Position numbers and translations under genes: made by a program. From an uncultured Planctomycetia bacterium (GTDB lineage: Bacteria > Omnitrophota > Gorgyraeia > Tantalellales > Tantalellaceae), in contig CAYSJU010000001.1 in assembly GCA_964431495.1 (NCBI GenBank), positions 31,574 through 95,573 of the forward strand: a stretch of 64,000 bases of DNA. The letters run 5' to 3'. The notes beneath the pieces were generated by a model. The model was not told the DNA's origin, searched no databases, and worked only from the letters and a program-made list of their open reading frames with translations. Shown here in pieces: positions 1 through 47,312 of the stretch (the stretch's first letter is position 1; each line of letters opens with the position of its first letter).

Positions 1-1
1 G

Positions 2-3000
2 ACCTTTGATGAAGCAAGCCTTCGCGCGGATATGATCCAGGAAGAGAACAAGGATGCGGATTTTGAAAGAGGCGGGGGGATAGTGACATTTGATGAAGAT
101 CACGTGCCGGCCGCGATCGCAGAAGAAGAAGGGCTGGCGCTGCCGTTGTCCGAAGACGCGGATCTGGCTCAGATCGAAAATGACCTGAAAAGAACGGCTT
201 TTCAGCTGCGCGCCGGCGAGATCGAATCCGATTCAGTGGAAGATATCTATGGGTGCTATACGGGCCGTAATGTGGAAGCCCCTCAAAAAAGCGGTATTGT
301 CAATAAACTGATAGAAAAGGCTCTCAGCCTGAGGACCCCCGGCGTGTATCTCATAAGGGCCCCTCCCAACCTTTTCTTCGCGGTCCGTGTTAACCGCCAC
401 GGGGAAGTGGACCTTTTTAAGATAGACACCCTTTTCAGCGGTTCCAATGACGAGATCCAGGGGAAGTTCGCGGGGATCATTGAAGAAGCGGGAAGAGAAG
501 CGGCTGCTGTCCGCAAAAGTGGTGAAAAGGTCGATGCAGGAAGACAGCAGTTCGGCTTCGAAGTCATAAACACTCTTTACGGGCATGACAATGCCGGTTC
601 AGTTATCGCTGTTATTTCCCACCATATCACTGATATCTTCAAAAAAGATCAGGACATATCGGGTAAAGAGCTGGTCCGGGAGCTGGCAGACAGGATGAAC
701 GGTGTTTTCGGGATCGAAAACGGTTTTCGCACCGTTGTCACTGCTTCGCATGTAAGAGAACAGGACGCGGAGTCAAGAGCCGAAACCACCGGCCGGGATT
801 TTGCGAGCACCATGCTGGAAAGGGCCAATGAACTTCTTGAAGCAAGGGACGTGGTACTGGAGGGATCCCGTATCGAGGGCAACCTCATTAAAGATGATAC
901 GGATTACAGCGCGCCTGAAGTAGAAAAGGCCATCCGGGAGAATATCAGCCTGGAAGAAACTTATCAGATGGAAAGAGGGGAAGAGGTCCTGGCGCGGGCC
1001 GATGCCCGGCTCATGAAAAAGGCGGAAGGGTTTCTGGCCGCGGTGGAAGAGAGGATTTCCGCGAAGGAACCGGTATGGGCATATGAGGAAAGAGGCGGCG
1101 GCATATCGGACCGGGGAGCCAGGTTTACGCATGAAGAGATAAACTCGGGTATCCGGGGGCTATTTGACAGATTTCGCAGAGTATTTGGCGTATTCGTTTT
1201 AGAGGACATGGGATTGGTCATAGGGAACGACAGGCTCGGAATGCCTGTTTACGACCTGGAGGGGTTGCGTGGATTGTTAGAGTCCAGGACTGAACAAAGG
1301 AAAGAGCTTTCCGATGTAGAGATCAGGCTGGTTAACGGCAGGTTAGTGGTAATAGCGGACAATATCTATACCCATTGCGGAAGGAGATCCGGGCAGGTGT
1401 GGATCGACAGGAAGGATCTAAAAGCCAAAAGAGTTGAACTCAAGAGCAAGCACGGTCTTGCGGACGGGGAAAGTGAAGGCATGGCTTTAGAAGCTCTTAT
1501 AAGACACGAACAAGGAGAACGCGATTCATTATTGGCACAGGCCCGTCAGCATTTTCTAAGAGAGACAGGAAGAGACACGGCTTCGGATAAAGAGATCGTT
1601 GAATGGATCGAAGATGAGGAAAACGTTTCTGACCAAAAATTCAATATTTGGCTTAAAACCGCGCATGAGGACGCTAAAAAAACCGAGAAAAGATATGTAA
1701 GGGTCCAGCTTGCCCGGGTCCCGGGTTATGACGAACTCAAAGAGATGCCCGTGGAAGTGATGGGGAGGATCATTGTCAGGCTTGAGAAAGCTGGAAATAT
1801 CGAAGGCGCTGGAAGTATTGTTGATACGTTGCTGGAATTACATGAGAGTGGTGAATTGCGGGGCGCGTGGACAGAAGCGGATATTTCCAGGTTCAACAGC
1901 GTGCAAAGAAGGCTTGCCTACCAGATAGAAGTCATGAGACAGCTGAAGGCGCTGCCTGATCTTGACAGACTTGAGGAGATGAGCATCAACGAATTTGGCG
2001 CTCTTATCGGCAGACTGGAAAGGCAAAGGGACTTTGAGGCAGCGGAAATGGTAGCGGGTGTATTGCTGGGACTTCATGACAGGGGTGAACTGAGAGGTGA
2101 ATGGGTTGAAGCGGATATCCGTTTGTATAGAAACAGGAAGAAGCGGTTTGGCTATAGGAATAAATTAGAACTCGCCAGGGCAGCTGTCGGCCGTGTAATT
2201 ACCCGGGCCAGACACGAAGAGTTCCACGAAAAACAGGGATACCGGGAAATATTGCTGGAAATCGGGAAAGAGATAGGAGCTCCTTTCGATGGCGAGAGGT
2301 ATGATTTCAGGACCGCTTTAAGAGAGGCAGAGGACGGCCGTATAAGGATAGAAAGAGCGGACGGGACAATAACGGAGATATACGAAACAGAAGACGGGAT
2401 CCTCGTGATTATGGATACCAGGATAGACGTGGGACATGCTGGAAGAACGCAGCTCGCTGTTTACGCGAATCATACTGGAAACCAGGCCCAGGCAGCCCAT
2501 GAATTAGCCGAATTGAGGGGTTGGATAGATTTTGCCGTGGTTCAGGGCCTTGCTGCAAAGGACGACATATTGACCAGGAGGGTGGATCTCGGCGGGCTTC
2601 TCATGGGTTATATGAGAGACGAGGCCAATTTTTACCGGGCAATGGATCAGGTAGAGCGTTTGCACCAGGAGGGGCTCAGGGCCGAAGCCGAGGCGCAGGG
2701 CTTGAGATACATGGCTCCGGCGGAAATAACCGGGGCCCTGGTAACATTCGAGTCCGGTGTGGATTATGATTTCATCATAGCAAGTACTCTGGGGGATGAG
2801 GCTGAACTGGAGGGCATGGGCCTGAGAGTCCAGGAATCCAGCGATGAATTGAGAGGGGCTCTCACCAGGGCGCGCGGATTGCTCAGAGCCGTCAACGAAT
2901 TGACCGAAGAGACGGATAAGCTGGCCAAAGCAGATGAATTAGTTGAAGTAGCCAGATTAGTCAGAGACAGGGCTGCCCGGGCTCTGGAAAATGTCTCTGA

Positions 3001-6000: not shown

Positions 6001-9000
6001 ATTCAGGGATTTTCTACAAAGCCTGGATATGGAAGCCCTTTCAGCCGAGGGGATAACGGACAAAGCTCAGTTCATTGATTATTTGAGAGTAAAGGCATTG
6101 GAGCAGGGATATACCCAAAATGAGATAACATCATTGCTGGAAAATCATGCAATTATGGGCAGTGAAAATCTTGTAGAATTCATAGCCACCCTCGGGAACC
6201 TTGCGGAAGAAAACAGCGCCATTCAGTACTTTATCCTGGCACTCAGTGCTTCGGGAGAAAACTACTTAAAAGACCTGGGTATAGGAAATAAAGCCGATCT
6301 TATCACGTATTTACAAGAGAAAGCAATGGAGAGAGGTGATTCTGGAACGGACATCACAACACTTATGGAAAGTTATATAGAATCAGGAAGTGAAAGTCTG
6401 GAAGAACTTCTTAGTATGCTTAATGCATTCCCCGGAGCCAGGGATACATACGTGCTCAGGGGGGTACAAACGCTTATTGAAGGAAGATTAAGTGACATTA
6501 TCTCTCTTGAAACGCAAAACCTGGAGAGCCTGAATACCCGCTGTATAGATCTCAGAAATTCCATTCCATGGGGTGAAGTCCCGTTCGCTCCCGGCCAGGA
6601 TACTATGGAATTCGAATGGGAGGGGAGTAAGGTCCTTGTCACTCGCAAACAGGTCGACGAATACCGTGAAAGGATAAAGAGTTCGGGCGCTAAAACCGTT
6701 GAAAGGCAGGTAACACAGTTAGAAGTAGCTGTAGCCACAATATCAAGCAGGGCCAGGAATATTTTGCGCAGGACCGGTAATGCTACGTTCAGAAGGAGGA
6801 TTGTAAATAAAGCAGAGGGATCCGTCAAAGAGGTGCTGAAGGAATGGCATAAATATCTGGAAGGAAAGATCAGTGAAAGGGACCTGGATATACTGGAAAG
6901 GGCCATGGATAAGTTCAAGCTGGTAGATGCGGATAGGACCATAAGCATGTTTACTCAGGCAACCAATTCCCTGCTCGCTGATGTCAATACAATAAGCCGT
7001 GCTGAAGGCATTTCAGAGTTTACAAGCTGGCTTCTTTTCAAGATGAACGAAATACTTGATCCGGCTTCAGAGTCAGGGGTTGTCAAGGAGATATCCGATG
7101 TTGAGAAAGGCGCGGTAAGAAAAACCGTGCAGGACCGGTTCAACGAACTTGTTGAAGAGCTTCTCGGGGCGGAGGTGGATCCTTCTATCATAGGAAGGAT
7201 CAGGGAAAACACGGATGAAATAAAGGACGAAATAGATGGGGACAACAGGATAGGAAGGCTTACGGTTCTTACGAAGGAGATGACGGATACCATCAAATCC
7301 ATAGCTTATGGAAAGCAAGGCATGGAACTTATGGAAGCTGTTCTAAGGTCCAAGATCGGAGACAATGTCACAAAGGAGAACATCGGCCGGGTAATGACCG
7401 CTCTCGGGATAACCGGAAAAGAACTGGAGATGTGCCAGGTACACATACTGGAGAAGGAGAAGATCGAAGACAGATTCGAAAGATTTGCCGAGTTCATATT
7501 ACAGTTAATGTTCACGGGTGCTGTCAGCGCGGACAGGTTAAGAGAGGTTTTCGGCCAGGAGGCTGCTGATGGAGTAATAAAGGAGGCCTCTAAAGGCATA
7601 ATGCTCGGTGAAAGGTTAAGAGAGAAAGTAAAAGAACTTGAGGGGAGGCTGCAGAAGAATTTTCAGGACAAGAATACGCGGATGGAGTTCGCTGCCGCGT
7701 ATCAACTGGGCGCTATTCTTACATTTGGCAACGCGCCTTTTGTTGAACAGATAATAACCGGGCTTGACATGGCAGACGACTTTTTCGTGGACATGGCTAC
7801 CGGCGCTGGTAAAACCCTTGCGTACCCCCTCGCAAACATGTTGGGAAGGTGCCGTGGCCTAAAAAATATCCATTTTGTCACTCATGACTATTATACGGAA
7901 AGGGATTACAGGGAGACGCATTTTCTTTACCAGGTCATGGGATACAATGTTTCTTATCAGAGAGGCGATCAAAGGGACCTGGGAGAAGCCGCGAAAAGGC
8001 TTGAAGATAATGATGTAGTGATAATGTCGTACGGAACGTGCAGCTTTACCTGTCTTGACGGGGTCAGGGACAGGACCCGTCCCGAAAGCGCGAAATGGTT
8101 CGACCTTTTAGCAAAGACCCGGCTCACGTTTGATGAATGTGATGTCGCGCCACGGCTCGCTGATTTCATCATGGCCGCGGCCCAGAACAAGCTGACCGTA
8201 AGAGAGTTCATGAGATATCACGTCCTGATGGAGACTTCAAAACGGCTTTACGACGAAGGCGGTATAAAGGAGATATATTCCCTTCTTGAAGATAATATCA
8301 CAAGAGTGAAACAGGGAGAAACGGACGAGACCGAACAGCTTGAGAAACTTGGCTCAATGCTTGGGATCGAAAAGGAAGATGTTGAGTTTGACAGCGCAGG
8401 CGATCTTGTGATCAAGTCCGTCACTGATGGGAAAGAATACACCCTGCCTGCCGTAAGAAGGAAAGCAGAGCTTATTGATGTCAATGGGACAAAATTCGGG
8501 GTCAAATATTCGGATAGGGACGGTTTTGTGATAAGCAGGATGGAATGGGTCGGTCATGCAGACCTGAGCGAAGGCGAAATAAAGAAAAGAATAGAAGATG
8601 CCGGAAAAAAAGGGAGAAGATTGAGCAGACGCCAGGCCATTGAAGAGCTGAGTAAGGAGGCAACAGAAAGGAGCGGGGTGAAGATAGACCTTACTTCCAG
8701 AACAGCTAACGCCGGAGAAGAGACCAGAAGCAGGGTAGAGGGGATCATGAAAGAGATGAGCTTTTCTCTCAGTGAAATGTTCCCCGAACTTGCGGAGAAA
8801 ACTCCTACCTGGGATGAATTTCTGGATACCGTAAAAGCAATGTATGTTGACGATGAAGGTGTTGATTACATATTAAAGTACCGGCCCAAACTCGGGGCGC
8901 AGCCTATAAAGGTTTTGGAAGAAGAAGGAGTATTAAAAATGACCCAGGAGGATAAGATTATCAAAGAACCCGAATTTAAGGTGGAAGTCCAGCATAACGG

Positions 9001-18000: not shown

Positions 18001-21000
18001 TGTCCTTCTGGCTGCCAAGGGGATCACAGGTGATGAAAACGCTAGCCAGAATAAACGCCAGAAAAAGCTTGATGAAATAAAGAGACCGTTGACAGAGGTG
18101 TTAAAGGATATCGAATCCAGCAAAGAAGAGCTGGTTGATGTAGAAGCGGAACTGACTGATCTGGAAGAAAGGAGAGGATCGCAAGAGGGGCAAGAGAGAG
18201 ATACTATTGCCGTTCAGAGCACTGATATCGCATCCGCGGTCAACAGGGCTTTTGAATGTATTGTGGACGGTAAATATGATACCGATAACGATAATGTGAA
18301 AAAGGCCGTAGAATTCCTGTCCTCGCTTTCACCTTTTGAAGAACTGCCGCATGAGGCTCAGGATGCCATAGTATCGAATATAGCGCTTTTACAGCGATAT
18401 GAAAGGGCATTGGAAATATCCGATAAAGCCGAGGGTGTTAAAAGACGGGCGTTCATCACCCGGCTTTTACTGGACTTACATTTCAAGGGAGACCATGACA
18501 TGCTAATGGGAAAGGCAAAGGTTGAGTTCATGGGGAACAAACCTTCTGGAACACTGATAGCTCTTGAACAGATCGACGGGGGATACGAAGGTCTGGGAGA
18601 GAAGATAGAAGTCACTGAATTTTTGGATTATATATCGGAAAAGATGCCCGAAGAGGGTCGCGGTGAACTTATAAACACGCTTTACGGGCTTCTCGAAACT
18701 GTAGACGGGACCCAGGACCCGGTCCTGAGAGCTGGTATTACGCGGAACATCTATAACTTGATTGATTTGGAAACGGATCAAGATCTGACCAGTGAAGAAA
18801 ATTTTACGGAAGAAGGGACCTTTAAAGATGAAAAACGTGAAATAATAATAAAGAAAAGTCTTACTGAATTGCTCAAGGAAAAAGAAATAAATGAAGCGAT
18901 CGCGGGAACAGAGGGGTTCCTGGAGGATCTGTTGTCAATATTTGAGACACTGAAGAAAGATGAAAAAGACTGGAAACAGATGGGCTGGCAGGACCAGATA
19001 GAGTTTCTGATGGATTTCTTTGTTGAGAAGGAGCAGCCCGAAGACCTGGTCGAAAAGATGGAACAGGCGAACAGAATGAAATTGTATGATGTCATGGAGA
19101 GAACGGAGGATGTCGAGCGACGAAAGGCGGCGATAGAGCAGATCCTCAGGCAGGAGGTCGACGTATTACCGGAGTCGAGGAATAACGATTTTATCAAGGG
19201 AAAAGCTTACGAACTTATGTCTCTTGATAAGGAATCCGCGCTGGCCGGTTATTTCCTGGGTGTTGCGGCGTATCAAAGCGGCAGAAGGACAAAGGAGGGT
19301 GAAGCAAAAAGACAGGAGGGCTATTCCCGCGCTGATGCTATTGAGCGGCTGAAGAAGTATCTGGAGAAAAATAAGGATGACGAGCAGGCGCTTCTTTTCC
19401 TCGCGGACATTTATGAAGCGAGGCACGATGAGATGTTCGCGGAAAACCGTAATAAAGAAGGATATGATCCGGAAGCGTCCCGGCATTTTGATGAACTTTC
19501 CGGTCATTTTATTAATAAATATGATGAAAAGATAAAAGAGAAAGATGAACCTGCCGCGGCAGAGGCCCTTTCCGAAGCGCTGAAATACATTGACCTGGCC
19601 ATAATATGCGATCCCCGCAACTCTGGTTTCAGGATCAAACAGGCAGGTATCTTCAAGAAAATGGGAGAGGATGAAGCGGCAGCGAGGGAAGCGGAGACCA
19701 TTATCGAAGTAAGCGTGGAAAAACCGCTGTTCGCGCCCATTGTTACCGTGGAAGACAAGAAAGAGGCAAATACATTGCTTGCGGATATAAGGATCAGTGA
19801 GGGAGATCTCCGCGGCGTTCAGGATATGTTAGAGGGGAGGATGAACCGGGTGACCAGGATGGGAAAAACAGCTCTGGCAGCCGCAGTGATATTAGCTGCC
19901 GCGGGTTTTCCTCTTGGCGGCCTGGTGCTTGGGAGCATTGCGGTCCTGGCGGCCATTATTTCTCATATTACGCTTATAAGGATCCCTGCCGGCATAGCTG
20001 CCCGGCTTGCGCTTATACACATGCGCCTGGGCGACAGAGGCAGGACCGGAAGATACATGAGGCGCATGCGCAGGAGAATAGAAAAACAGGGAGAAAAAGT
20101 AGACGCTGATACACTGGGTATTCTCGCAGATGAACTGCAGACGTGGGCTGGCGCACCTGAAAGGCCTGATAAAGACAGGTATGTAGTTTACGGCGAGATC
20201 GTGGACTTAAGAGAGATGAGGAAAGAGTCCCCGGCTGTAAGCGAGGATGAGGAAAACAAACGTATTGCCGGATTAAAGATGGAACAGGCCCGGATGGAAA
20301 GGCCTTTAGGCTTGCGGCGGAGGGAAAAACGAAGGCAGGATCATCTGGAAAACAGAAAAGGGCTGTTAAATGCGGCTAAAGAAGCGGATCCCGACCTGTC
20401 TGATGAAGCTGATCAGATGCTGATGGCTATAAACAACAAGGAGATCGAACGGCTCGAACGCCAGCAGAGGCGTTTTCAGAGGGTAAGGAACAGGCGGTTT
20501 GTCAGAAGGTTTTTCCATGATGTAGCCGAAAACATTATTCCGCTTTACCTGGATAATGCCGGATTACTTGTTGAGCTGTTCGAGAAAGAAAGCGATCCTG
20601 CCAGTCTTAGCGATCTCAGGGGACAGGCATACGATGCTCTGACCTTTGCAAGGGAGATCGCTGAAAGGGACAGGAAAGATTTGCCGGAAGAGCATGGAAA
20701 ATTAATGGCCAGGATATTTGTCAGCCTGGGAGACGAGAACAGGGGAAGACGCGAGTATGATACCGCGCTTTCAGATTATGATCTGGCCATTGAGCAGGAT
20801 GATAATAATGCAAAAGCCCATCTAGGGATAGCTCTTGCACTTAAGGAACAGGGCGCTGATCCGGAGCTTATCGCGGAGCATCTCGATAAAGCCCTTGAGC
20901 TTGAACCTTCTCTTGACGAACCCGGGGCCGAGAATTTTGAGGGTTTAGTTGAACTTTATAACAGCCTTGGAAAGCATGACATGGCGGAGGCCGCGGCAGA

Positions 21001-24000: not shown

Positions 24001-26374
24001 CGTATTACAGCTTCAGATCATGACATTTGTTGATACGGTAAATGACATTAAAAATACTCTGAAAATGGATTCCGTGTTCAATCTTAATCCTGATATAGAC
24101 GTGACCTTTGGACTTGCCGCCGCATACCTTGACATGATCTCCGGTAACGGGGCAGGAGCAACCGCTGTTTTGCGTTCCATTAATCCAAGAAGTGACGAGG
24201 ACAGGGCAGAATTCGTCTTTGCCAAGATGCGTATGCAATTGGCGGCTGGTGAAACGGATAGCGCTGAATATTCCCTGAAAATAATGGGAGCATTGGATCC
24301 TGGCATGACGCCTTCCGCAAGGATGTTGATCGCTGAAAAATATCTGGAACTCGGAAAGAAGGCTCGAGGAGGTAGCAGGGAACAAAGACAATATCTCGAA
24401 AGAGCCGTGTCTTTATGGCCTAAATTCCTGGAAGCACATGTGGCTCTTGCGATCTTATACGCCAAAGTAAAAGACACGGCAGCAAGGCGGGAGGAGGACC
24501 GGTTCATCGCCCGTATAAGAACGGATATTGCTGAGGAAAGAAATTTAAGCCCCGTGCAAATGAGATGGGACAGGGGAGAAGAGGCAAGGAAGCACCTGAT
24601 AAAAGCTCCGGTTCTTGAAAGGCTGACATATTTCGGTATACCGGTAGGGGTAACGTTATTAGCGGGATTCAGGGGCATCAGCAGCATATGGGCGCTTCTC
24701 GGAATTGTCCCCATGGGGACGATATTCGGAGTATTTTTTGCGATAATGCAGATACCGTTTATTGTGAAGTTTATACAGGAACATAGGGGTGAAAGAAGAA
24801 TGGCATGGATGGTATCTCTTGGAAGCTTTGCCCTGCCGTTACTGGTGTTATTCGCTCCTTTTGATCTGGCCCCTGCGGCCCTTATCGGAATAGCAATTGG
24901 TTTTCACGCGTTTGCCAATTTAACGGTATTCACATTGAACACGATTACAAGGAGACAGATCTTCAATTACGCGACAAAAGAGGTCGGGTTGCCCGGACTG
25001 CTTCCCGAGATGCCGCTCCCGCCTCCGGTAGAAGCTGTTCCTTCCGTGGCTGTTGTAGGTGTTGTGGAAGGTGATGAAGATGAGATGGAACGGTTGAGTG
25101 GGGAATATCCTGATATTCGATTTATTTCGATAAAAGAAGGAGGCGAAGCGGGAATAAAACAAATGGAAACTGTAATGGGTCCGGTAACAAGGTTCCTTGT
25201 TGATATGACCCCCGAAGATGTGCTTGAGAATATGGACAAGATTGTTGAACAGGCCCAGAGGCAGTCTTTTGTGGACATGTATCCGTATCTGGCGGGTCTG
25301 GATGCCCGGTCCATCAGGAACCTGGACAAGACGGACCTTGAAGGGGCGATGCAGGTAGTAAGTGTGTCAATGCCGCAAGAAAGACCCATGGAAGAAGGTG
25401 TCCTGGGATCGCTTTATGCGGCTTACATCTCCGGCGTGGCGCCTGATACGGCTCTGCCCGCGGGTATTGCCCCGGGAGATCAGGAAGCCTGGGTCAGGGA
25501 GAACGTCCGGGCGCTTAAAGATTATGAAGAGACTCAAAGCATGGGATTGCCGGTTGAAGCGCCTGAAAAGAAACTGCTTGCCTTACACGCCGGATTGGAT
25601 GATTTTCTGCGGGATAGATCCAGGGATGATATAAACAGGATACTCATGCGCCATGAAGGCATCGCCATGGCTCAAGGCATGGAGGATGAAGTCGTGGGAC
25701 TCATGTCTGAATTCAGAAATGCCGGTCTCATCCCAAAAGAGGCGCCTCAGTCCATAGTGATCGATGCCAGGAAAGATTCGGGGTTTAGACTTGAATACAT
25801 GGTGCCGGCTCTCCTGGATTTTGCCGGGAAAGCCCCGCTTTTGCATATAACCGTGATAACAGAACCCGGTGTTGATCTGACCGAATTCATCCCCGGGGCA
25901 GAGATGCCGGATAACCTTTCCCAGATGGACAGGATTCTGGAAGAGGTGCCTTTGTCGGAGCAGGTCAAGGGGCACCTGGAAGATATGGGCAAGGATATAC
26001 CTTTGCCTTCGGTTTCAATAGCCACAGGTGAATTTATGACGGACAAGATCATAATCAATGTAAAAGATGCCGGGACCCAAGGCGCGAACTTTGTCATAGC
26101 CGGTGAAGAGATGCTGGCGCCTGATGACGAGGCCGCGAAAAGGATACACCGCCTTATACCCGCGATAGCGGCCATGAACCTTTTAAGGCGGGCGGCGGAT
26201 GAACGCAAGGCTCCCAGCATAGTGGCTATGGGATGCGGAGAAGATACGATAAACGATATCATGACGCGCCTCAAGGACGTTCTTCATACACTGGTCAGGA
26301 TAGCGAGACTTGATATCGGTGAGGCTGTAAGAGCGTTTATCGACAGCTTGCATGAAGTTGCGGCTGCCGTATAA
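2..26374 (+). CDS. Giant multi-domain membrane-associated protein, truncated at the 5' window edge (8,791 codons in window). Contains a SecA-like motor, TPR/helical arrays, charged spacers, TM clusters and a C-terminal alpha/beta domain.
   Basis: One reading frame with no stop from nt 2 to TAA at 26372-26374. The frame is open upstream of the first ATG (nt 32), and that ATG has no Shine-Dalgarno, so the true start probably lies before the window. Recognisable motifs are listed in the sub-features. Confidence 0.9.
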   Translation, partial: TFDEASLRADMIQEENKDADFERGGGIVTFDEDHVPAAIAEEEGLALPLSEDADLAQIENDLKRTAFQLRAGEIESDSVEDIYGCYTGRNVEAPQKSGIVNKLIEKALSLRTPGVYLIRAPPNLFFAVRVNRHGEVDLFKIDTLFSGSNDEIQGKFAGIIEEAGREAAAVRKSGEKVDAGRQQFGFEVINTLYGHDNAGSVIAVISHHITDIFKKDQDISGKELVRELADRMNGVFGIENGFRTVVTASHVREQDAESRAETTGRDFASTMLERANELLEARDVVLEGSRIEGNLIKDDTDYSAPEVEKAIRENISLEETYQMERGEEVLARADARLMKKAEGFLAAVEERISAKEPVWAYEERGGGISDRGARFTHEEINSGIRGLFDRFRRVFGVFVLEDMGLVIGNDRLGMPVYDLEGLRGLLESRTEQRKELSDVEIRLVNGRLVVIADNIYTHCGRRSGQVWIDRKDLKAKRVELKSKHGLADGESEGMALEALIRHEQGERDSLLAQARQHFLRETGRDTASDKEIVEWIEDEENVSDQKFNIWLKTAHEDAKKTEKRYVRVQLARVPGYDELKEMPVEVMGRIIVRLEKAGNIEGAGSIVDTLLELHESGELRGAWTEADISRFNSVQRRLAYQIEVMRQLKALPDLDRLEEMSINEFGALIGRLERQRDFEAAEMVAGVLLGLHDRGELRGEWVEADIRLYRNRKKRFGYRNKLELARAAVGRVITRARHEEFHEKQGYREILLEIGKEIGAPFDGERYDFRTALREAEDGRIRIERADGTITEIYETEDGILVIMDTRIDVGHAGRTQLAVYANHTGNQAQAAHELAELRGWIDFAVVQGLAAKDDILTRRVDLGGLLMGYMRDEANFYRAMDQVERLHQEGLRAEAEAQGLRYMAPAEITGALVTFESGVDYDFIIASTLGDEAELEGMGLRVQESSDELRGALTRARGLLRAVNELTEETDKLAKADELVEVARLVRDRAARALENVSEYAAFAARIAEATAGDRVSAIARVADELARNAQSYIAFDHEYVQEAEESARAGNIDSLVRAVSNLISGVTFSSGAIRVALAVTEAESAGEVAAIVLRAAANKAVDHDFTEAGRYARAAAEIAGEGYIAEKADELATVAAEAQSELVDELAGKAVGAGNIEKAAQMGNIIRFDPAIIGKMRVARAIKEEVEEEAPPKAEEEVPVEEEVEEEVPAEEEVAPEEEGKSQLESADRDIRIAVEQAKDGDAVAAEKSVKDAFEAWSSAAENFLKAATAAKERNNANAARAYTVRAAEVWAVAAEKLKEASSETWDVFHERFSGATPVTRSVIDRIGRFAYNASDYQARALGKALGFFEQIAAERAETKDAVSAVKFARRATDICVSLATQEKFAVEFIAFLVKDIDISAEMAATINEQAQSVKAAAAKAAEDAAKYWEDIDNAAEKIFFRRDAMEARAAAEKTDALVRKVADFAEKTVAAKDRKAKEEERDRTRIAVAREKADKALGEIEGLIAEAQAKADEAAIKAAAKIGAPEEAVADATAGVYSEGIAQVNTFKFLIKGSAEIAAKAATVKEAEDAAKAAAKSVELAVKFNNVAESVDDAKTLFEKVVALAQAAADFVKIAELPMVTVCAELAAEFAQATGVSVDGSENHVSGVGDLLNNIAMYARQGDAEKAERNAVAAVRRLRKAAAGKEAERAREKAPPVEGVGAEKAREEAARKEAEAEAARAKAEKATEEIEKAWEEADWKQAEAEAAWMKAEAETLREEAFRKGEEAEPARAEADRKGTEAEAAGEEADRKEEEARKAREEASRKEAESEALEEITRIFIDKTLNRANRISELSEIATRSEKVLLRRYARRALGRILDRKYTDIDFVLEIEPGTILSVYNGINRESREPGAVEDIRILDAIMESCFLEDRDSDLFINALDITERNIETVCDILSDDITYLKTEIQTLGRAPVIDLEAQTEAVNDLRKQIAAKKAVLDSMVKRQFQLREYRDLREEDRFRDFLQSLDMEALSAEGITDKAQFIDYLRVKALEQGYTQNEITSLLENHAIMGSENLVEFIATLGNLAEENSAIQYFILALSASGENYLKDLGIGNKADLITYLQEKAMERGDSGTDITTLMESYIESGSESLEELLSMLNAFPGARDTYVLRGVQTLIEGRLSDIISLETQNLESLNTRCIDLRNSIPWGEVPFAPGQDTMEFEWEGSKVLVTRKQVDEYRERIKSSGAKTVERQVTQLEVAVATISSRARNILRRTGNATFRRRIVNKAEGSVKEVLKEWHKYLEGKISERDLDILERAMDKFKLVDADRTISMFTQATNSLLADVNTISRAEGISEFTSWLLFKMNEILDPASESGVVKEISDVEKGAVRKTVQDRFNELVEELLGAEVDPSIIGRIRENTDEIKDEIDGDNRIGRLTVLTKEMTDTIKSIAYGKQGMELMEAVLRSKIGDNVTKENIGRVMTALGITGKELEMCQVHILEKEKIEDRFERFAEFILQLMFTGAVSADRLREVFGQEAADGVIKEASKGIMLGERLREKVKELEGRLQKNFQDKNTRMEFAAAYQLGAILTFGNAPFVEQIITGLDMADDFFVDMATGAGKTLAYPLANMLGRCRGLKNIHFVTHDYYTERDYRETHFLYQVMGYNVSYQRGDQRDLGEAAKRLEDNDVVIMSYGTCSFTCLDGVRDRTRPESAKWFDLLAKTRLTFDECDVAPRLADFIMAAAQNKLTVREFMRYHVLMETSKRLYDEGGIKEIYSLLEDNITRVKQGETDETEQLEKLGSMLGIEKEDVEFDSAGDLVIKSVTDGKEYTLPAVRRKAELIDVNGTKFGVKYSDRDGFVISRMEWVGHADLSEGEIKKRIEDAGKKGRRLSRRQAIEELSKEATERSGVKIDLTSRTANAGEETRSRVEGIMKEMSFSLSEMFPELAEKTPTWDEFLDTVKAMYVDDEGVDYILKYRPKLGAQPIKVLEEEGVLKMTQEDKIIKEPEFKVEVQHNGSYKVVYKGIFIALLNDEFFKGKGDDEMVLAMGDKRYAVAKGDTGGYVFTESGMEVVLLDRETGREQGGQRKDRFHTLYELKHQKRPGDRPEARGDNKSTEYLSFTDVARFAHSYGGASGSVSTAADVMLKIFEKAKGVKKLTPQFAKKGAEKMPVFVTSNKAQWKVTLNRLKEIYTASPGASVIVYFDDIKQAREFEEELGKMIKETGLEKDAGGEIKVNVFGEEGIKEVELVEKAGKPNTITLADSKLGRATNVELSEKVGFVVRNSAEALEEFLTGKKRGETGRDTLTIEEKGEISNTVARLVELLAGMEYIEEEDRWDEGLFFKTDVAERAKKREEIENFLRDLGAGPGSMVWQTIKHKYFDGLFLVDLSPDGSLQGMVQKFGRNRRQGDIGFVDSFYSLQEGSKFFRLVEEAYNPSHNLHRTERERKEGLVKFNEFLDRKNRIGELEEHVFDENGHYLEGIDEGIFMEWCELQQYFMAFMRDVRVEHQKRADEQRVRKNESDKKTQKYLDLVRDLPVDIYEKMDKNPEEARRIVEDRLTAIQDEHFTLDKVDDDGWLDLEEFLGVVEEHFHINLEDKARFSQARLKERNVKELLFLREQFRRALMDVILSVGSVTGRAGEPVALNTGNIFYTFMLDPTTGDLEVNSVQQLLPDGNRQEILEKRDDGTIKIGEAVFTSGFMEDGSFALFDISGRPVNRFFIEPYVDRTGAEAGFRITQAGAFVSAIKALYVEGLDRLKMKLIREARYKGGEVTETDISETGLAAAAIEVSRERYIDKRDKTAEYDSPEAQPIIRDATETIHGSLDKLGKRLAEQDKAVDELAVENLEKEKQWDSIKLARSVRRSTRKADEEVASRVRDAGVITVQEEAQEARLDETAAITAQSIYSVSRTNELVAALEGITGVEIREGEVKRRDERDRKDMQMEYTREQEERIEAALEYQERISSQHRQKLERGEGSVIGDRVFVTVDKPEGQTISDAEVEQCFSVGAAPSGAGGAEAPPEPGIIMVASARELQGLSDEDKRQLANELDNRFGKAGETIAVAFNSLSEGEFDEDEETARFSFSGLRVFDRASMSSLRAERESLRDSTEKEKHVLTQEKLEKKLELSPEDKDEKVFIKKVGTSNFMVIVADDGTTYVRDLGKDVLPQTKREVVRANAVLSGKDRESRKAGLRADEYIVNESGVFVRMEGVPGAPGSDKPPVPLFDVLVDINLTGKEEIGERLPLTKETGRPEMRGVWSQTRRRGRGVGNAIKGVFVRFGRRALTAKEWIDYRVDLVYRSHGFFRSLLPAVPKVIISRFIIGIPKFMFKDTRRRFGLWRERRKAAYKRKASRLEQKWRRGELFHRLDYRLNKIKKDPSAGKIKKGFASVGSWILRASFKKTYYWIRTGAGNAFLAISIVFVLRVAFWELPKGILKLIFVLPVRKFRGWLKKRKEMKEPELESEDVIRSRLPQIVQEGTITEERAVEEAQKLTGAELQVPETHSVRVRRIAELLQYLSQEGLDRSDPEYEAACREIGQILFDMAEDAEKIGTDLWKERARELRLNAFNYMSIAAALDKKDMTATALLGIILHSMGDDGKAKKLLEKAVKKGVPQDANMTMACVVLGKMLEDEADKSKDREDYKKAARVYQKARMSDVTLLGEDISITEAKARCLENAKKKAKEEEKKPSAGQQMKKMLGESFKLNKLMGSKRQRIIAGVLAGTVVIIAIFAPGLLLAVASTLGGVKLPVLSWGLAQIASPLLILAEAGGIVAKLFALSKVAFSFTMIIRLSTGAGRRVYGIFTNPLAIRRMVRTERQAMKRAPGQAEPRIGLIKVYESMDKTSKAARQVNRTSKKIRKGKMSPEESAKFIEFLFERSKKEKEEKEEEEEMGFPGFPGTPGLGAVRRKPKAEEMKKEEASKEEKQREKERETAEYLFRAVYASAETPEDRAKAYLLRGRLALRSEPPEVVRMRDGPEDFVDIAVYSADQIVDRVDELESKSAATAEESQELEKLRPFVTDALLLRMEALQKRYEKNRTEENGREFLNVLEQLRVLADQMDTEQLERFQTAGIDHKPDEKTSARSYAKSAEEATSIEEAPAIEKKEPAVEEKLFTGDQADRAQREMLEDKLKREKTLLSGERLDLAELYMKEGLYSRAIRQLKKIPRGDDKAALVARMIVLGCLKMKEDPRWFQRLGLIRRFWTFRRAINRLRALGGENTEWADWIASTLYKVRPAGAEEAFEAIAASYMAEPANNDEKVNNELIESGLKAIVGSKRRKVEASRAVENMLAHGSIPDERGPFTELASDNTRKLKETVKKTSKKKLRALVRDLYSIRRKRLERLAAIERKLTPGTDPYEKNRAKRDRLRKEKEKIDRELGPIELDILNRTALLVGANKESPGAVSEISEHGELKYFIRALAGGHEHVSDLMKKLDHIEEGVGKDFLHVLLVDAWLEDRFGQAYDNDKNKPSGVVADRDQLMMHFSVLLSIYGQSENKVLRDIIRSALENISGYDIYGTWDGRKFGRSPVVSDAIESLGEVQEEGIKGLVAEMNEKQGAKNLNEGRSLESKAKEEKDALKRSGLTNKAKRQLGSAMVHLENSMEYYRERLEERGIDRDQRKKALEPIRGLIEAWYGRDAANAVIKVMEEAISEEEDEDELIKRMEPVLDKITFVGTDKDLVKKLLPGLSLKDLITLMNNCGNILSYDEKMTQILARGAGYDMEEWDMAIDAVKDLLGNIDVDDLVKARLDVDIRMNAVQVPVPGDDPEILSEWIILIAGLIKKKKETGLDTTNEMETYEVLKEKLITVLKKRRDREETDEINGALREAGSLISAAEAYEALGEYGKAEEALGKARDMINDLFERNMQLQYEGEELLPEEVMEKCKDKATELAGKLKGVYYRQGKYFDAMMTVARGQKLLAEYTFTVDGVEKEADAQRYINKARETLNNADRLNPYQPDVKLEMMEVDMLRLTIARREVEEAQKKEDEEKEKKEELEKKIEELTEKQEKLEEDLAIVRNRAQAEVVLLAAKGITGDENASQNKRQKKLDEIKRPLTEVLKDIESSKEELVDVEAELTDLEERRGSQEGQERDTIAVQSTDIASAVNRAFECIVDGKYDTDNDNVKKAVEFLSSLSPFEELPHEAQDAIVSNIALLQRYERALEISDKAEGVKRRAFITRLLLDLHFKGDHDMLMGKAKVEFMGNKPSGTLIALEQIDGGYEGLGEKIEVTEFLDYISEKMPEEGRGELINTLYGLLETVDGTQDPVLRAGITRNIYNLIDLETDQDLTSEENFTEEGTFKDEKREIIIKKSLTELLKEKEINEAIAGTEGFLEDLLSIFETLKKDEKDWKQMGWQDQIEFLMDFFVEKEQPEDLVEKMEQANRMKLYDVMERTEDVERRKAAIEQILRQEVDVLPESRNNDFIKGKAYELMSLDKESALAGYFLGVAAYQSGRRTKEGEAKRQEGYSRADAIERLKKYLEKNKDDEQALLFLADIYEARHDEMFAENRNKEGYDPEASRHFDELSGHFINKYDEKIKEKDEPAAAEALSEALKYIDLAIICDPRNSGFRIKQAGIFKKMGEDEAAAREAETIIEVSVEKPLFAPIVTVEDKKEANTLLADIRISEGDLRGVQDMLEGRMNRVTRMGKTALAAAVILAAAGFPLGGLVLGSIAVLAAIISHITLIRIPAGIAARLALIHMRLGDRGRTGRYMRRMRRRIEKQGEKVDADTLGILADELQTWAGAPERPDKDRYVVYGEIVDLREMRKESPAVSEDEENKRIAGLKMEQARMERPLGLRRREKRRQDHLENRKGLLNAAKEADPDLSDEADQMLMAINNKEIERLERQQRRFQRVRNRRFVRRFFHDVAENIIPLYLDNAGLLVELFEKESDPASLSDLRGQAYDALTFAREIAERDRKDLPEEHGKLMARIFVSLGDENRGRREYDTALSDYDLAIEQDDNNAKAHLGIALALKEQGADPELIAEHLDKALELEPSLDEPGAENFEGLVELYNSLGKHDMAEAAAERIEARFLKAKKEELGKKAKQARKKSEAPQLEDVVQTGVEIERLRKEIEEKEEIVAALPDGDKGEPYYTYAENDLELDKAELKAREEDLGNNMTRFKELVNKGEVFNAVIGNMRGQPLDEAMEQLSVFHDLLKKQNLLSAKNISDPVDLALAERYEQKGDLEKAEEHLKPVLEAVPSTLGHVKANLVIKAYLLHAKVLVRTDKETRFEDAVDSLSRAAGWISGLNENFKDRRLVSDAFDSFKDVLRSLEEAGLSFDVYMKYRDNLFDIFEQLSVLGEDADAARLAADAALKNITDRSRGFIGNALFDKRIKDVLKAPFLQAILDAIPRDRTVLNKLQGLQEHLEMVLDSRDNDLRVRANLIMGLLTGRGRKARNLIKEAVTADESLKNTALVVRGLARTYILYFPRNIALRSRARKMEKQTAGEFVRRGNNDFDKEKHHGAIRNYEKAIDLDSSLKENKDIKEKLSKAYEEDKGTLMSRFRRLFWRKEKKLLLGTDLLRKALEFATDEDRKPAVRNSLISNLTALSTLMTTRFVNMRSAEQRKKWQDFQARMSDINTEIGKLHADNMILHQEKKHSAEAEASFNNAKGALTMAVKFNPENMEARNGLERLGEEVPAEETAEQLIRKARDKVKEGEFEEALSLLDEAVEKDKDKESEVKDDKGNIEEVNKITDAILDYFMRKAYIAEYAGLSDTNDPDGSKRKGIQNRFMRELSGNFQNRQETGSNIFEEWFRLSDREDVTRGSELRQFADMSIRGAGEEKPAIKPGIRDMFFHRGLIMAERLVGERNTAKALHLLALLRGIRTSKKAQLLAATCNIMRLGDQEKKPLRDLISEAEQEFISVVVSTPEDKAEKSRLALEVGRLFSGRASSLWRDNQKTDRSQARQEAEEYYKAALKLDPSNSEALQGLVNFYGRERVEELFSDDTRPFVIEAIIRSEDMAALGGLFNTTFQGKDGMLDEGRVEVARALFARIDELKDTEGQEIIRLMKAALPVMRGLKLQDPVLQLQIMTFVDTVNDIKNTLKMDSVFNLNPDIDVTFGLAAAYLDMISGNGAGATAVLRSINPRSDEDRAEFVFAKMRMQLAAGETDSAEYSLKIMGALDPGMTPSARMLIAEKYLELGKKARGGSREQRQYLERAVSLWPKFLEAHVALAILYAKVKDTAARREEDRFIARIRTDIAEERNLSPVQMRWDRGEEARKHLIKAPVLERLTYFGIPVGVTLLAGFRGISSIWALLGIVPMGTIFGVFFAIMQIPFIVKFIQEHRGERRMAWMVSLGSFALPLLVLFAPFDLAPAALIGIAIGFHAFANLTVFTLNTITRRQIFNYATKEVGLPGLLPEMPLPPPVEAVPSVAVVGVVEGDEDEMERLSGEYPDIRFISIKEGGEAGIKQMETVMGPVTRFLVDMTPEDVLENMDKIVEQAQRQSFVDMYPYLAGLDARSIRNLDKTDLEGAMQVVSVSMPQERPMEEGVLGSLYAAYISGVAPDTALPAGIAPGDQEAWVRENVRALKDYEETQSMGLPVEAPEKKLLALHAGLDDFLRDRSRDDINRILMRHEGIAMAQGMEDEVVGLMSEFRNAGLIPKEAPQSIVIDARKDSGFRLEYMVPALLDFAGKAPLLHITVITEPGVDLTEFIPGAEMPDNLSQMDRILEEVPLSEQVKGHLEDMGKDIPLPSVSIATGEFMTDKIIINVKDAGTQGANFVIAGEEMLAPDDEAAKRIHRLIPAIAAMNLLRRAADERKAPSIVAMGCGEDTINDIMTRLKDVLHTLVRIARLDIGEAVRAFIDSLHEVAAAV
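7684..10560 (+). other. SecA-like ATPase motor region (NBD1 - PPXD-like insert - NBD2 - helical scaffold) inside the giant ORF
   Basis: Motifs appear in SecA order. They are: FVEQIITGLDMADDFFVDMATGAGKT (Walker A, nt ~7750-7815); VTHDYYTERDY; SYGTCSFTCLDGVRD; LTFDECD (DExD box, nt ~8129-8143); VVLLDRETGREQGGQRKDRFHTLYELKH (nt ~9163-9250); SFTDVARFAHSYGGASGS; TLADSKLGRATNVEL (nt ~9731-9775); GRNRRQGDIGFVDSFYSLQE (nt ~10156-10220). Confidence 0.8.
12848..13270 (+). other. Hydrophobic/basic cluster 1 of the giant protein (putative membrane-inserting or amphipathic segments within an Arg/Lys-rich stretch)
   Basis: FFRSLLPAVPKVIISRFIIGIPKFMF and AFLAISIVFVLRVAFWELPKGILKLIFVLPV sit inside a very basic region (RRRGRG..., RRRFGLWRERRKAAYKRK, KKRKEMK) spanning nt ~12720-13320. 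Confidence 0.55.
14084..14330 (+). other. TM cluster 2 of the giant protein (about 3 hydrophobic helices)
   Basis: IIAGVLAGTVVIIAIFAPGLLLAVASTLGGVKLPVLSWGLAQIASPLLILAEAGGIVAKLFALSKVAFSFTMIIRL. Confidence 0.7.
19859..20020 (+). other. TM cluster 3 of the giant protein (about 2 hydrophobic helices)
   Basis: MGKTALAAAVILAAAGFPLGGLVLGSIAVLAAIISHITLIRIPAGIAARLALIH, followed by an Arg-rich stretch (RLGDRGRTGRYMRRMRRRIEK). Confidence 0.7.
24623..24945 (+). other. TM cluster 4 of the giant protein (about 4 hydrophobic helices)
   Basis: LTYFGIPVGVTLLAGFRGISSIWALLGIVPMGTIFGVFFAIMQIPFIVKFIQEHRGERRMAWMVSLGSFALPLLVLFAPFDLAPAALIGIAIGFHAFANLTVFTL. Confidence 0.7.
25027..26371 (+). other. C-terminal alpha/beta domain(s) of the giant protein. 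It ends in a motif shared with the 1,932-aa and 988-aa proteins.
   Basis: Short hydrophobic strands alternate with helices (VAVVGVVEG, IRFISIKE, LLHITVITE, KIIINVKD, FVIAGEE, SIVAMGCGE). The terminal sequence LKDVLHTLVRIARLDIGEAVRAFIDSLHEVAAAV aligns with the C-termini of the CDSs ending at 42283 and 45499. Confidence 0.6.
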
Positions 26375-26558: not shown

Positions 26559-27374
26559 ATGAAGTTATTATTTATTAAGATAATAGTGATAGCTGCTTTT
26601 TCTGCTTCATCCTGTGCTTTTGCTCAGGAAGATGTCCTGGACGAACTCAATGCGAAAGCAGTGAAGCTCTACAAGGAGGGGAAATATGAAGATGCGATCG
26701 TCACGGCTAAAAATGCCATGGAGATCACAAAAGAGAGATACGGGCCGGAGAGCCCTGATGTATCGGCATCCTTGAATAATCTTGCGATTATTTACCAGGC
26801 TGCCGGCAGGTTTGATAAGGCCGAGGACCTTTTGAAACAGGCCCTGTCAATAGATGAGAAGATATTCGGTAAAAAGGACGTCACTATAACCAGGGTCCTT
26901 GATAACATGGTCGTCTCATATTATATGCAGGATAAATACGGCGAGGCAGAGCGTTTCTGTGAAAGGTCTCTGAAATTGAAAGAAAAATTTCTTGGAAAGG
27001 ACGCTTTGCCGTGCTCAGCATCTCTTTATATGCTGTCGAATCTTTACTTGCTGCAGAAGAAATATGAAAAAGCGGCCCGGGCATATGAACGCTTGCTGGG
27101 CATATTGGAAAAAGAGCTCGGCCCGGAGCATTCTAATATCGGACAGATCCTGTATGAATATGGAGGGGTGCGTAAGGCTCAGGAGAGATATCCGGAAGCG
27201 CTTACTTTTTATGGCCGCGCCGTTAAAATAATCGAAAAGGCGAATGGCATGGACCACCCATCTTTAGCTGTCGTCCTCGATGACATGGCAGAGGCTCATA
27301 AAAGAACAGGTGATGAGGAATCGGCAAAAAAGGCCGAAGAGCGCGCCGAACAGATCCGTCTCAAAGATCAGTAA
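26559..27374 (+). CDS. Secreted tetratricopeptide-repeat protein (kinesin-light-chain-like TPR_10/12 type)
   Basis: Signal peptide MKLLFIKIIVIAAFSASSCAFAQ. About 42-aa repeats of the form YG.E.PDVA.SLNNLA.IY...G.Y..AE.L...AL.I.EK..G. The ATG at 26559 is preferred over the TTG at 26538. Confidence 0.8.
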   Translation: MKLLFIKIIVIAAFSASSCAFAQEDVLDELNAKAVKLYKEGKYEDAIVTAKNAMEITKERYGPESPDVSASLNNLAIIYQAAGRFDKAEDLLKQALSIDEKIFGKKDVTITRVLDNMVVSYYMQDKYGEAERFCERSLKLKEKFLGKDALPCSASLYMLSNLYLLQKKYEKAARAYERLLGILEKELGPEHSNIGQILYEYGGVRKAQERYPEALTFYGRAVKIIEKANGMDHPSLAVVLDDMAEAHKRTGDEESAKKAEERAEQIRLKDQ

Positions 27375-28213: not shown

Positions 28214-28268
28214 AACATTTTCGGTTTAAAAATTAAAATAAATCAACATCAAAGCAGGTGTGAACAGT

Positions 28269-36204: not shown

Positions 36205-36484
36205 AGTATAGCATATTTTTATGGAAACGATAAGGACTGAAAAGTGGGGTTTTCCCAATTCAGGAAAAATGGGGGGACTCTCAGTTCACACCAGGTGGTA
36301 ATACTCGTTGTATGTTAAGGTTTAAAAAATTAAGAATATTTTTTAGCTGTTTCCCCGGCCGGCATAGGTATACTTTATAGTGGGAGATTGAGACCGATCT
36401 TTCTGGCTTATGTTCTGAATAATTATCATAATTAATTTGATTTTAATACTCAAAACATTTAAAGAGTATAAACGGAGAAACAAC

Positions 36485-47117: not shown

Positions 47118-47312
47118 ATGGGAAAAAGTCTGAGTCTGATAATCGGAGCTATTGTCACGATCATCGGCCTTGTTCTTCTCGTGGCATGGCGGTATGAATT
47201 CTTTTTTTTCCTGCGCGGCGTGATCCCGTGCCTGCTCATACTGGGAGGGGTGATCGCGATTATCGCCGGAGTGAGCGAGCTCAAGGACGTTCTGAAGAGC
47301 AAAGGACAGTAG
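47118..47312 (+). CDS. Small 2-TM membrane protein (64 aa)
   Basis: Strong RBS AGGAGG 6 nt upstream of the ATG. Two hydrophobic helices: LSLIIGAIVTIIGLVLLVAW and VIPCLLILGGVIAIIAGV. Confidence 0.65.
   Translation: MGKSLSLIIGAIVTIIGLVLLVAWRYEFFFFLRGVIPCLLILGGVIAIIAGVSELKDVLKSKGQ

Follow-up and report, generated by a model that had tools for sequence, protein, structure and literature searches.

A giant gene at the edge of the window

The stretch of DNA analysed here (64,000 bp, positions 31,574 to 95,573 of contig CAYSJU010000001.1, hereafter the window) begins inside a giant open reading frame (ORF) that runs off its 5′ edge and encodes, among other parts, a SecA-type motor. We are highly confident that the ORF belongs to a real 29.3-kb gene of an uncultivated Omnitrophota bacterium and that its product is a membrane-anchored protein of 9,755 amino acids (aa), of the kind known as giant proteins with a divergent SecA DEAD motor. 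The features of the window are listed in Table 1. Residue numbers refer to the window ORF, in which residue 1 lies at the window edge, and not to the full-length protein.

From 2 to 26374, frame +2 contains only the terminal stop codon. The first ATG is found at position 32 and no stop occurs upstream of it. With the regional base composition a stop would be expected at 5.7 % of random codons, and the probability of 8,790 stop-free codons is about 1e-223. The remaining five frames of the same DNA contain 153-648 stops each and their longest open stretch is 375 codons. Over the whole giant ORF, the frequency of G at the first codon position is 0.36-0.52 compared to 0.14-0.33 in the other two phases; every 2-kb slice keeps the codon-position signal, with purines making up 0.67-0.81 of the first positions. 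Tandem Repeats Finder recovered three short two-copy repeats in the 26 kb and a comparison of the protein with itself gave a single internal repeat at the BLAST level, so the ORF is unique coding sequence and not a repeat array. A tandem-repeat scaffold, or collapsed repeats, was rejected on the same two nearly empty searches.

The first-pass annotation of this DNA, made from its letters alone, had reported a stop-free frame of more than 26 kb and suspected that the real protein is larger still. Both statements hold. Small proteins of the window are recorded with identical sequence in the JGI metagenome 3300022553 and in the Logan assemblies of SRR6481098, and the loci fetched from both are 100 % identical to the window DNA; independent assemblies were retrieved for window positions 16559-37374. 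The JGI contig Ga0212124_10000316 has 43,620 bp and contains the giant gene in its interior, with a call of 9,755 aa. By arithmetic from this call, about 2,894 nt (965 codons) of the gene precede window position 1, and the contig continues for another 2.8 kb ahead of the start. The true protein is therefore longer than 8,790 codons and the window holds the 3′ 90 % of the 29.3-kb gene. A search of metagenome and genome contigs with the first 400 residues of the window ORF gave no match. No terminator was found after the gene, and promoter-like sites are no more frequent than expected by chance.

The coding strand shows a strong purine excess in the window at 1-26000 and 38000-42000. GC skew is 0.17-0.27 throughout these stretches and AT skew is 0.14-0.26, except for the last 2-kb slice of the giant gene (24001-26000), where it is 0.05. 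The skew is confined to the giant gene and to the 3′ half of an ORF of 1,948 aa further downstream, and it probably reflects a composition rich in Glu, Lys, Arg and Ala rather than a replication strand bias.

Table 1. Features of the window. Codes such as P0001 and L089 denote relatives of the giant protein, described in the text; NBD, nucleotide-binding domain; PPXD, preprotein cross-linking domain; TPR, tetratricopeptide repeat.
Feature	Window position	Residues	Strand	Remarks
Giant ORF, cut at its 5′ end by the window edge	2..26374	1-8790	+	8,790 sense codons; stop at 26372-26374
N-terminal modules	2..2701	1-900	+	No Pfam match
Sole internal repeat at the BLAST level	1706..2158	569-641 vs 647-719	+	41 % identity, E 1e-12, protein against itself
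Ala/Glu-rich region	2699..5461	900-1820	+	Composition measured
Conserved pre-motor region	6476..7603	2159-2534	+	Collinearity with P0001, P0002, P0003 and L089-L091 starts here
NBD1, SecA-type	7604..8161	2535-2720	+	Walker A and DExD
Walker A, MATGAGKT	7793-7816	2598-2605	+	Motif
DExD box, FDECD	8129-8143	2710-2714	+	Motif
Insert of ~330 aa at the SecA PPXD position	8162..9151	2721-3050	+	Beta-rich in model
NBD2, SecA-type	9152..10231	3051-3410	+	Contains the next three motifs
GASGSV		3116-3121	+	NBD2 motif
LGRATN		3249-3254	+	NBD2 motif, arginine-finger position
GRNRRQGD		3386-3393	+	NBD2 motif VI
Post-motor helical region	10232..10846	3411-3615	+	At the position of the SecA helical scaffold
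Small beta-rich domain	10853..11161	3618-3720	+	From model
Conserved post-motor region	11162..13165	3721-4388	+	Similarity to relatives
Hydrophobic cluster 1	13166..13276	4389-4425	+	Aromatic-rich; kept in relatives
Degenerate TPR-like helical repeats, ~3,600 aa	13679..24481	~4560-8160	+	Interrupted by clusters 2 and 3
Hydrophobic cluster 2	14081..14305	4694-4768	+	2-3 transmembrane helices; kept in relatives
Hydrophobic cluster 3	19868..19978	6623-6659	+	Tight two-helix hairpin
Hydrophobic cluster 4	24626..24937	8209-8312	+	About four transmembrane helices; kept in P0001
C-terminal alpha/beta domain, 447 residues	25031..26371	8344-8790	+	From model
Small TPR protein, directly 3′ of the giant gene	26559-27374		+	TPR_12, E 7e-45
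Second small TPR protein	27384-28085		+
ORF with weak IS200/Y1-transposase match	28260-28931		+	PF01797, E 7e-7, C-terminal two-thirds of the profile only
Associated gene, 1,948-aa protein	36437..42283		+	Signal-peptide-like helix and ~560-aa N-domain
988-aa protein, HD domain and MbnB/TglH/ChrH-like region	42533-45499		+	E 1e-8
64-aa ORF between mgtE and purH	47118-47312		+	Precomputed MamI match, PF26391

Relatives of the giant protein

Residues 2451-3450 were searched exhaustively with HMMER against 1.84 billion representative proteins, which gave only eight proteins at E < 1e-30, followed by ordinary SecAs at E ~1e-8. A word-indexed homologue search with residues 1801-3300 gave no match; the database used for it seems to be without giant proteins, the longest protein listed from it in the N-domain search described below having about 1,160 aa. 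Of the relatives, P0001 is complete (7,055 aa) and collinear with residues 2270-8505 at 30-38 % identity. P0006 (7,334 aa) and P0008 (4,748 aa, cut off by the edge of its contig, JAPLMF010000046.1) are more distant and keep the domain order, and P0002, P0003, P0004 and P0007 are fragments of proteins of the same kind. Scanning JGI metagenomes with an alignment of the motor added four more loci with ORFs of 5,360 to >7,337 codons. The locus L089 is 36 % identical to residues 2177-6797.

The collinear homology spans more than 6,000 residues in several independent metagenome sequences and the order of the domains is identical. Identity to P0001 is highest in the motor (47-65 % per 100 residues) and remains at 15-50 % elsewhere without interruption. 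We consider this collinear conservation across independent samples the strongest argument that the giant ORF as a whole is one functional gene.

Some of the relatives are broken. L090 and L091 (JGI Ga0180437_10002723 and Ga0180438_10003849) share 99.98 % identity, and a single-T difference in a T4/T5 homopolymer (around L091 position 17085, inside hydrophobic cluster 2) splits the L091 gene. This explains the "5,332-aa" protein P0002, and the difference stems either from sequencing error or from a frameshift between strains. Coverage of the P0003 contig is 2.4-fold, and its relative lies there in pieces. Such breaks are consistent with assembly or sequencing error, with strain variation as an alternative.

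Two further proteins, P0012 (5,111 aa) and P0030 (3,155 aa), represent a second, more SecA-like lineage of motor-bearing giants, which keeps sequence resembling the SecA scaffold after NBD2. P0012 combines a C-terminal alpha/beta domain of the window type with an N-terminus rich in Gly zippers and containing multiple transmembrane segments. As P0012 carries both, the combination of motor and C-terminal domain is found in two divergent lineages.

The SecA-type motor

The Pfam model SecA_DEAD matched residues 2537-2693 (E 5.6e-13, 49.2 bits against a cut-off of 24.6). NCBIfam models matched the giant only with the N-terminal part of SecA or SecA2, and the curated full-length SecA models failed by a wide margin (TIGR03714, 33.4 bits against a cut-off of 930; NF006630, 32.7 against 862). 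When searched against PDB sequences, the single window protein recovered NBD1 of SecA and, weakly, NBD2. A profile of six giants found SecA only (E 7e-19), in three stretches corresponding to NBD1, to part of the PPXD with NBD2, and to motif VI; this family profile aligned to SecA residues 223-530. Walker A, DExD, GxSGS, the arginine of GR(A/G)T and Q..GR..RQGD are invariant in the six giants (29-52 % identity) and in 26 ordinary SecAs. Motifs V and VI of NBD2 are separated by a helical insert of ~110 aa. Identity of the giant motor to ordinary SecA is only about 20 %, and single-sequence searches reach E-values of only ~1e-8.

The structure of residues 2525-3720 was predicted by AlphaFold on a joint alignment of giants and SecAs, with a mean predicted local distance difference test score (pLDDT) of 80.1 and a predicted template modelling score (pTM) of 0.66. 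In a Foldseek search of the PDB the top 36 matches were all SecA (E 2e-19 to 2e-7), followed by far weaker matches to DdmD, DinG and XPD. The template modelling (TM) scores, normalised to the target, were 0.41-0.57 for full-length SecA and 0.68-0.70 for the isolated DEAD motor.

In the profile search only the distal part of the ~330-aa insert aligns to the PPXD of SecA; Pfam SecA_PP_bind did not match, and the insert is larger and beta-rich in the model. After NBD2, Pfam SecA_SW had no match on the giant and a profile of the region found no SecA even at E up to 10, so a SecA scaffold recognisable by sequence was rejected. The giants show a gap at the position of the helical wing domain in the joint alignment with SecAs. 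In the model, a continuous helix of 51 residues (3467-3517) stands in place of the SecA two-helix finger, and a long scaffold-like helix is present. The motor is thus derived from SecA and is probably an active ATPase. It falls outside the definition of a SecA protein, as neither the wing and finger nor the full-length models are matched.

Domain organisation around the motor

Parts of the N-terminal modules recur in relatives, residues 347-579 in L092 and residues 734-937 in P0014. In residues 900-1800 Ala makes up 21-27 % and Glu 13-17 %. This region is presumed to be helical, and its end (residues ~1700-1820) is a charged E/A/K/R sequence with the look of a single alpha-helix. Downstream of the motor, the only similarity of the small beta-rich domain is to flagellin outer domains and is marginal and non-significant (E 0.01). 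The conserved post-motor region ends extremely basic, with a net charge of +10 across the 40 residues ahead of hydrophobic cluster 1. Flanks of clusters 2 and 3 are strongly basic as well, with +7 on each side of cluster 2 and +10 downstream of cluster 3.

To the region of helical repeats, TPR-type Pfam models matched in eight of the ten slices of residues 4301-8300, located at about 4566-8160, most of the matches being singly below threshold. The summed scores exceeded the cut-offs for TPR_19 (55 bits, cut-off 25), TPR_14 (43.7, cut-off 23.5) and TPR_2 (35, cut-off 27). A consensus-TPR hidden Markov model (HMM) recognised only six motifs in the giant, and the PDB matches of the region are designed consensus TPR proteins. 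P0001, P0006 and L089 align collinearly with the region at 20-45 % identity. "TPR-like" is a fair name for it and "TPR array" overstates what is there.

The C-terminal domain was modelled at pLDDT 61 and pTM 0.55 as two Rossmann-like lobes with a helical insert. It is common to P0001, P0006, the different motor-bearing giant P0012, P0151 and P0152. The domain has no Pfam match and no P-loop motif, and none of its Foldseek matches was significant (UDP-GlcNAc 2-epimerases at E 2.4e-3 with TM 0.22-0.27; SRP54 at E 5.6e-3). A C-terminal tail common to the giant and either the 1,948-aa ORF or the ~950-aa proteins with the same N-terminal domain, which look similar by eye, was rejected: the hhalign probabilities were 0.4 % and 0.08 %, and an HMM of the tail scored no better than shuffled sequences for five of six giants.

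Each element of the architecture given in the first-pass annotation held up. The N-terminal modules remain without a Pfam match over residues 1-900, the SecA-like motor is borne out by the SecA_DEAD match, the invariant motifs and the Foldseek ranking, the basic and hydrophobic membrane clusters show up in a hydropathy scan as four clusters, and the C-terminal alpha/beta domain has a model of moderate confidence. AlphaFold and Foldseek yielded the SecA fold for the motor and no significant match for the C-terminal domain. The Ala/Glu-rich composition was measured as described, while the helices themselves are presumed. The roughly 11 kb of TPR-like repeats interrupted by transmembrane clusters exist as a region, with degenerate repeats and recognisable TPR motifs only scattered along it.

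An N-terminal module typical of Omnitrophota

The 1,948-aa ORF had no Pfam match. It starts with a signal-peptide-like helix followed by a domain of about 560 aa (N-domain), and the same combination starts all four distinct full-length relatives of the giant (P0001, P0002/L090, L089 and L092), whose N-domains, like that of the gene following the giant on contig L085, are 27-30 % identical to the N-terminus of the ORF. The 965 residues of the giant that lie outside the window are long enough for the helix and the N-domain and, by analogy with these relatives, are expected to hold them.

A profile search with the N-domain resulted in at least 199 proteins. The top 120 all have E < 1e-120, and almost every one with a name carries the label Omnitrophota or Omnitrophica. 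The proteins are typically 900-960 aa long and some are fused to a Ser/Thr kinase, GGDEF or GNAT domain. The N-terminal helix is present in 102 of the 120 listed proteins. In the member fused to GGDEF the order is helix, N-domain, one transmembrane helix and cytoplasmic output domain. The N-domain contains an invariant pattern D-x-H ... E-G ... GG-x-H. This pattern and a weak Pfam match (E 0.098) suggested a hydrolase of the ChaN/Tiki/TraB type; the profile search of the PDB was empty and we treat this identity as a lead only.

On the contig L085 (ENA ERZ23498365 scaffold_1669), positions 1-15619 hold a giant ORF of 6,941 aa that is cut by the contig edge. The L085 giant ends in a C-terminal domain like that of the window protein, after an overlapping frame change, and is directly followed by a gene starting with the signal-peptide-like helix and the Omnitrophota N-domain. 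Giant and N-domain genes thus seem to cluster in L085 as in the window.

Source organism and neighbouring genes

Placement of the contig with marker genes, as the first-pass annotation had proposed, points to Omnitrophota. The best matches of PurH in GTDB genomes are 53-57 % identical and four of the top six are Candidatus Omnitrophota metagenome-assembled genomes (MAGs). The gene order purH-folC-mnmE is common to those four MAGs and only two others among 80 loci. The labels of the N-domain proteins point the same way, and the relative P0008 may be from Omnitrophota as well, a guess made from the accession prefix of its contig, which neighbours those of two Lac Pavin Omnitrophota MAGs among the PurH matches. 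On these sequence comparisons the source is an Omnitrophota lineage without a close representative genome, and the window is an ordinary chromosomal region with housekeeping genes encoding glycogen phosphorylase, UvrD, Era, MgtE, PurH, FolC, MnmE, FolE, AccA and MlaEFD.

The first of the two small TPR genes begins 184 nt past the giant stop on the same strand, with no terminator-like site between them. The ORF weakly similar to IS200/Y1 transposases, which is possibly left over from a mobile element, separates these TPR genes from the gene for glycogen phosphorylase. The 988-aa protein shows an unusual pairing of an HD domain with a region like MbnB/TglH/ChrH, a family of iron enzymes that modify precursors of ribosomally synthesised and post-translationally modified peptides. 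For the 64-aa ORF, the match to the magnetosome protein MamI is listed in a public index and was not reproduced with the Pfam copy used here.

Topology, possible mechanism and alternatives

Our best explanation takes the genuine gene, its architecture and the mechanism set out below together, and to this combination we give slightly less than an even chance. For the mechanism we favour, more tentatively, a membrane-tethered translocation ATPase of the SecA kind fused to a scaffold. The helix clusters would serve as hairpin anchors, and the motor would hydrolyse ATP and clamp and move unfolded polypeptide at a channel in the membrane (SecYEG, presumably). As substrate it could take its own exported N-terminal portion or partner proteins docked on the TPR platform; the TPR solenoid and the C-terminal domain would form this fixed docking platform.

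The motor is expected to work in the cytoplasm, because its intact and conserved ATPase site requires ATP. According to the positive-inside rule, basic flanks of membrane helices sit in the cytoplasm; as the flanks are basic on both sides, the clusters fit hairpins with cytoplasmic flanks. At least the N-domain would be exported, since the N-terminus resembles a signal peptide. Transmembrane segments between the N-domain and the motor are found in L089 (aa 851-920) and in P0002/L090 (aa 1636), and both, like the GGDEF fusion, fit an arrangement with the N-domain outside and the body inside. The favoured mechanism is essentially the suggestion of West-Roberts et al. (bioRxiv 10.1101/2023.11.21.568195), made more specific by the domain map.

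A bolder proposal, which we regard as unlikely, is an "auto-translocator", one chain with its own signal peptide, periplasmic Omnitrophota-specific N-domain, SecA-derived motor and anchors. Here the motor would act in cis, threading several thousand upstream residues across the inner membrane, and would then stay as a permanent membrane-bound platform made of the TPR solenoid and the C-terminal domain. To our knowledge, no protein that brings its own export ATPase has been demonstrated experimentally.

Several observations speak against a membrane-tethered translocation ATPase. The insert at the PPXD position is far bigger than the SecA domain and for the most part unlike it. None of the elements by which SecA engages SecY and pushes its substrate (helical wing domain, two-helix finger, C-terminal tail) was detected by sequence in the giant. 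No secretion-system genes, SecY2 or accessory Sec genes were found in the 37 kb downstream of the giant. The four hydrophobic clusters and their helix counts come from a simple hydropathy scan and not from a trained predictor, and cluster 3 is not conserved in P0001. All six N-termini examined (those of the four giants, of the 1,948-aa ORF and of the gene following the L085 giant) have the signal-peptide-like helix, four of them with an AxA-type motif. Finally, P0001 and L092 have no hydrophobic segment from the N-terminal helix to the motor, and standard topology rules therefore place their motor outside the cytoplasm.

The last two observations, together with the frequency of the helix among N-domain proteins, speak for the alternative that West-Roberts et al. 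favour, namely a protein that is exported and acts at the surface or in attack, which to us is improbable. Most of the chain would cross the inner membrane by means of the signal peptide, the TPR-like solenoid and the other modules would act outside, attaching to a host or prey cell or attacking it, and the SecA-like domain would only assist its own export or be carried along. However, the ATPase motifs are invariant across the family and there is no ATP outside the cytoplasm, and the strongly basic flanks on both sides of the clusters belong in the cytoplasm by the positive-inside rule. Moreover, Pfam and NCBIfam scans of the window part gave no domains of the adhesin, carbohydrate-active, peptidase, dockerin or Ig-like kinds, and West-Roberts et al. 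themselves call some of the predicted extracellular localisations highly unlikely (bioRxiv 10.1101/2023.11.21.568195). The elements missing from the motor and the different PPXD insert, as well as its strong divergence from ordinary SecA, would suit another candidate that we likewise rate as not very probable: a cytoplasmic scaffold tethered to the membrane, whose SecA-derived motor no longer moves secretory proteins and has been repurposed for another ATP-dependent task, for example remodelling or unfolding bound clients or arranging a complex at the membrane on the TPR platform. A TPR region of such length would suit the assembly of several proteins, and according to West-Roberts et al. the Omnitrophota genomes that bear giants also encode a SecA of normal length. 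Against a repurposed motor stand the facts that SecA proteins are its only detectable relatives, that the clamp-closing part of the PPXD still aligns to SecA and that the motor always occurs in proteins with membrane anchors. The best global structural matches, 5eul and 6itc (TM 0.56-0.57), are substrate-engaged SecA-SecY complexes and point in the same direction, weakly, as conformations of models are unreliable.

An artefact (a chimeric assembly or one with collapsed repeats, a pseudogene in decay, or several genes joined through sequencing errors) would be compatible with the broken relatives, namely the pieces on the low-coverage P0003 contig, the gene split between two samples by a single-base homopolymer indel and the overlapping frame change in L085, and with independent assemblies having been retrieved for only part of the window. 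We consider it very unlikely in view of the long stop-free frame with its uniform coding signal, the near absence of nucleotide tandem repeats, the identical JGI contig with its 9,755-aa call and the collinear homology to independent metagenome sequences in the same domain order.

Comparison with known systems

The first-pass annotation had pointed to a class of giant Omnitrophota genes with SecA DEAD domains whose members have no demonstrated function, and both statements are correct. West-Roberts et al. (2023, bioRxiv 10.1101/2023.11.21.568195) described giant Omnitrophota proteins of >30,000 aa, of the Archaeovorin and Dockerin types, with a SecA DEAD domain without scaffold and wing, and proposed a role of this domain in their own export. 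Nielsen & Lui (2026, bioRxiv 10.64898/2026.06.07.730766) catalogued proteins of >=10,000 aa and obtained a cluster of 20 proteins whose architecture is defined by PF07517 alone. Neither work demonstrates a function.

With the giants of West-Roberts et al. our protein shares the Omnitrophota origin, several transmembrane regions, a SecA DEAD domain with a possibly PPXD-like part and no scaffold or wing, a domain-free N-terminal region beside a signal peptide (expected here from the relatives), and TPR repeats. It differs in size, with 9,755 aa compared to >30,000 aa. Unlike the Archaeovorins it has no glycosyl transferase, hydrolase, methyltransferase, NUDIX or peptidase domains, and unlike the Dockerin type no dockerin or TSP3 repeats, as judged from Pfam and NCBIfam in the 8,790 window residues. 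No C39 or S8 peptidase was found in this readable part of the giant either. The PF07517 cluster of Nielsen & Lui is similar in having SecA_DEAD as the sole enzymatic Pfam domain, membrane anchors, repeats of the HEAT/TPR kind and few tandem repeats; this likeness is one of architecture and not of sequence comparison, and our protein lies just below the 10,000-aa cut-off, so that the catalogue would not list it. The giant thus has the defining traits of the described class, namely Omnitrophota origin, membrane segments and a divergent SecA motor without wing, and the class assignment of the first-pass annotation is supported. Both published length cut-offs, below which the protein falls, are operational and not biological.

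Canonical SecA resembles the giant in NBD1 and NBD2 with every catalytic motif, in the insertion at the PPXD position and in the long helix after NBD2. However, SecA is a soluble protein of ~800-1,000 aa, whereas the motor here occupies residues ~3,500-4,375, in full-length numbering, of a 9,755-aa membrane protein, has about 20 % identity to SecA, lacks a detectable wing domain, finger and C-terminal tail, and scores 33 bits with NCBIfam models that require 862-930. The accessory SecA2/SecY2 system exports very large serine-rich adhesins, and some SecA2 proteins have no wing domain. Its specialised SecA paralogue is dedicated to very large proteins, and the NCBIfam SecA2 model is the top, if weak, match of the giant; the scores do not separate it from SecA (1.4e-8 vs 2.2e-8). 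In contrast to that system, genes for SecY2, Asp1-3 and the glycosyltransferases are absent at 26.5-64 kb of the window (37 kb downstream), and the motor is fused to its presumed client instead of being a separate protein. The giant adhesins of the RTX/LapA-like type I kind differ as well: our protein has no RTX or Ig-like Pfam matches, one internal repeat and three tiny tandem repeats, and its C-terminus is a folded alpha/beta domain in the model.

Implications for the family

Work on the synthesis and export of very long membrane proteins, and on the role of the giant Omnitrophota proteins, is hampered by protein size. Smaller members of the kind escape catalogues drawn at 10,000 or 30,000 aa. 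The giant and its relatives of ~7,000 aa make up a coherent family, small in number and comparatively short, with an intact SecA-like motor within a membrane protein, and they begin with, or are expected to begin with, an N-terminal module that is almost confined to Omnitrophota-labelled proteins and also occurs in fusions with signalling domains. The motor can be excised as a fragment of ~1,000-1,200 aa that models well (pLDDT 80), which makes the family a tractable way to test the activity, location and cargo of the motor. If the auto-translocator proposal were true, it would help to explain how bacteria handle proteins of 10,000-100,000 residues.

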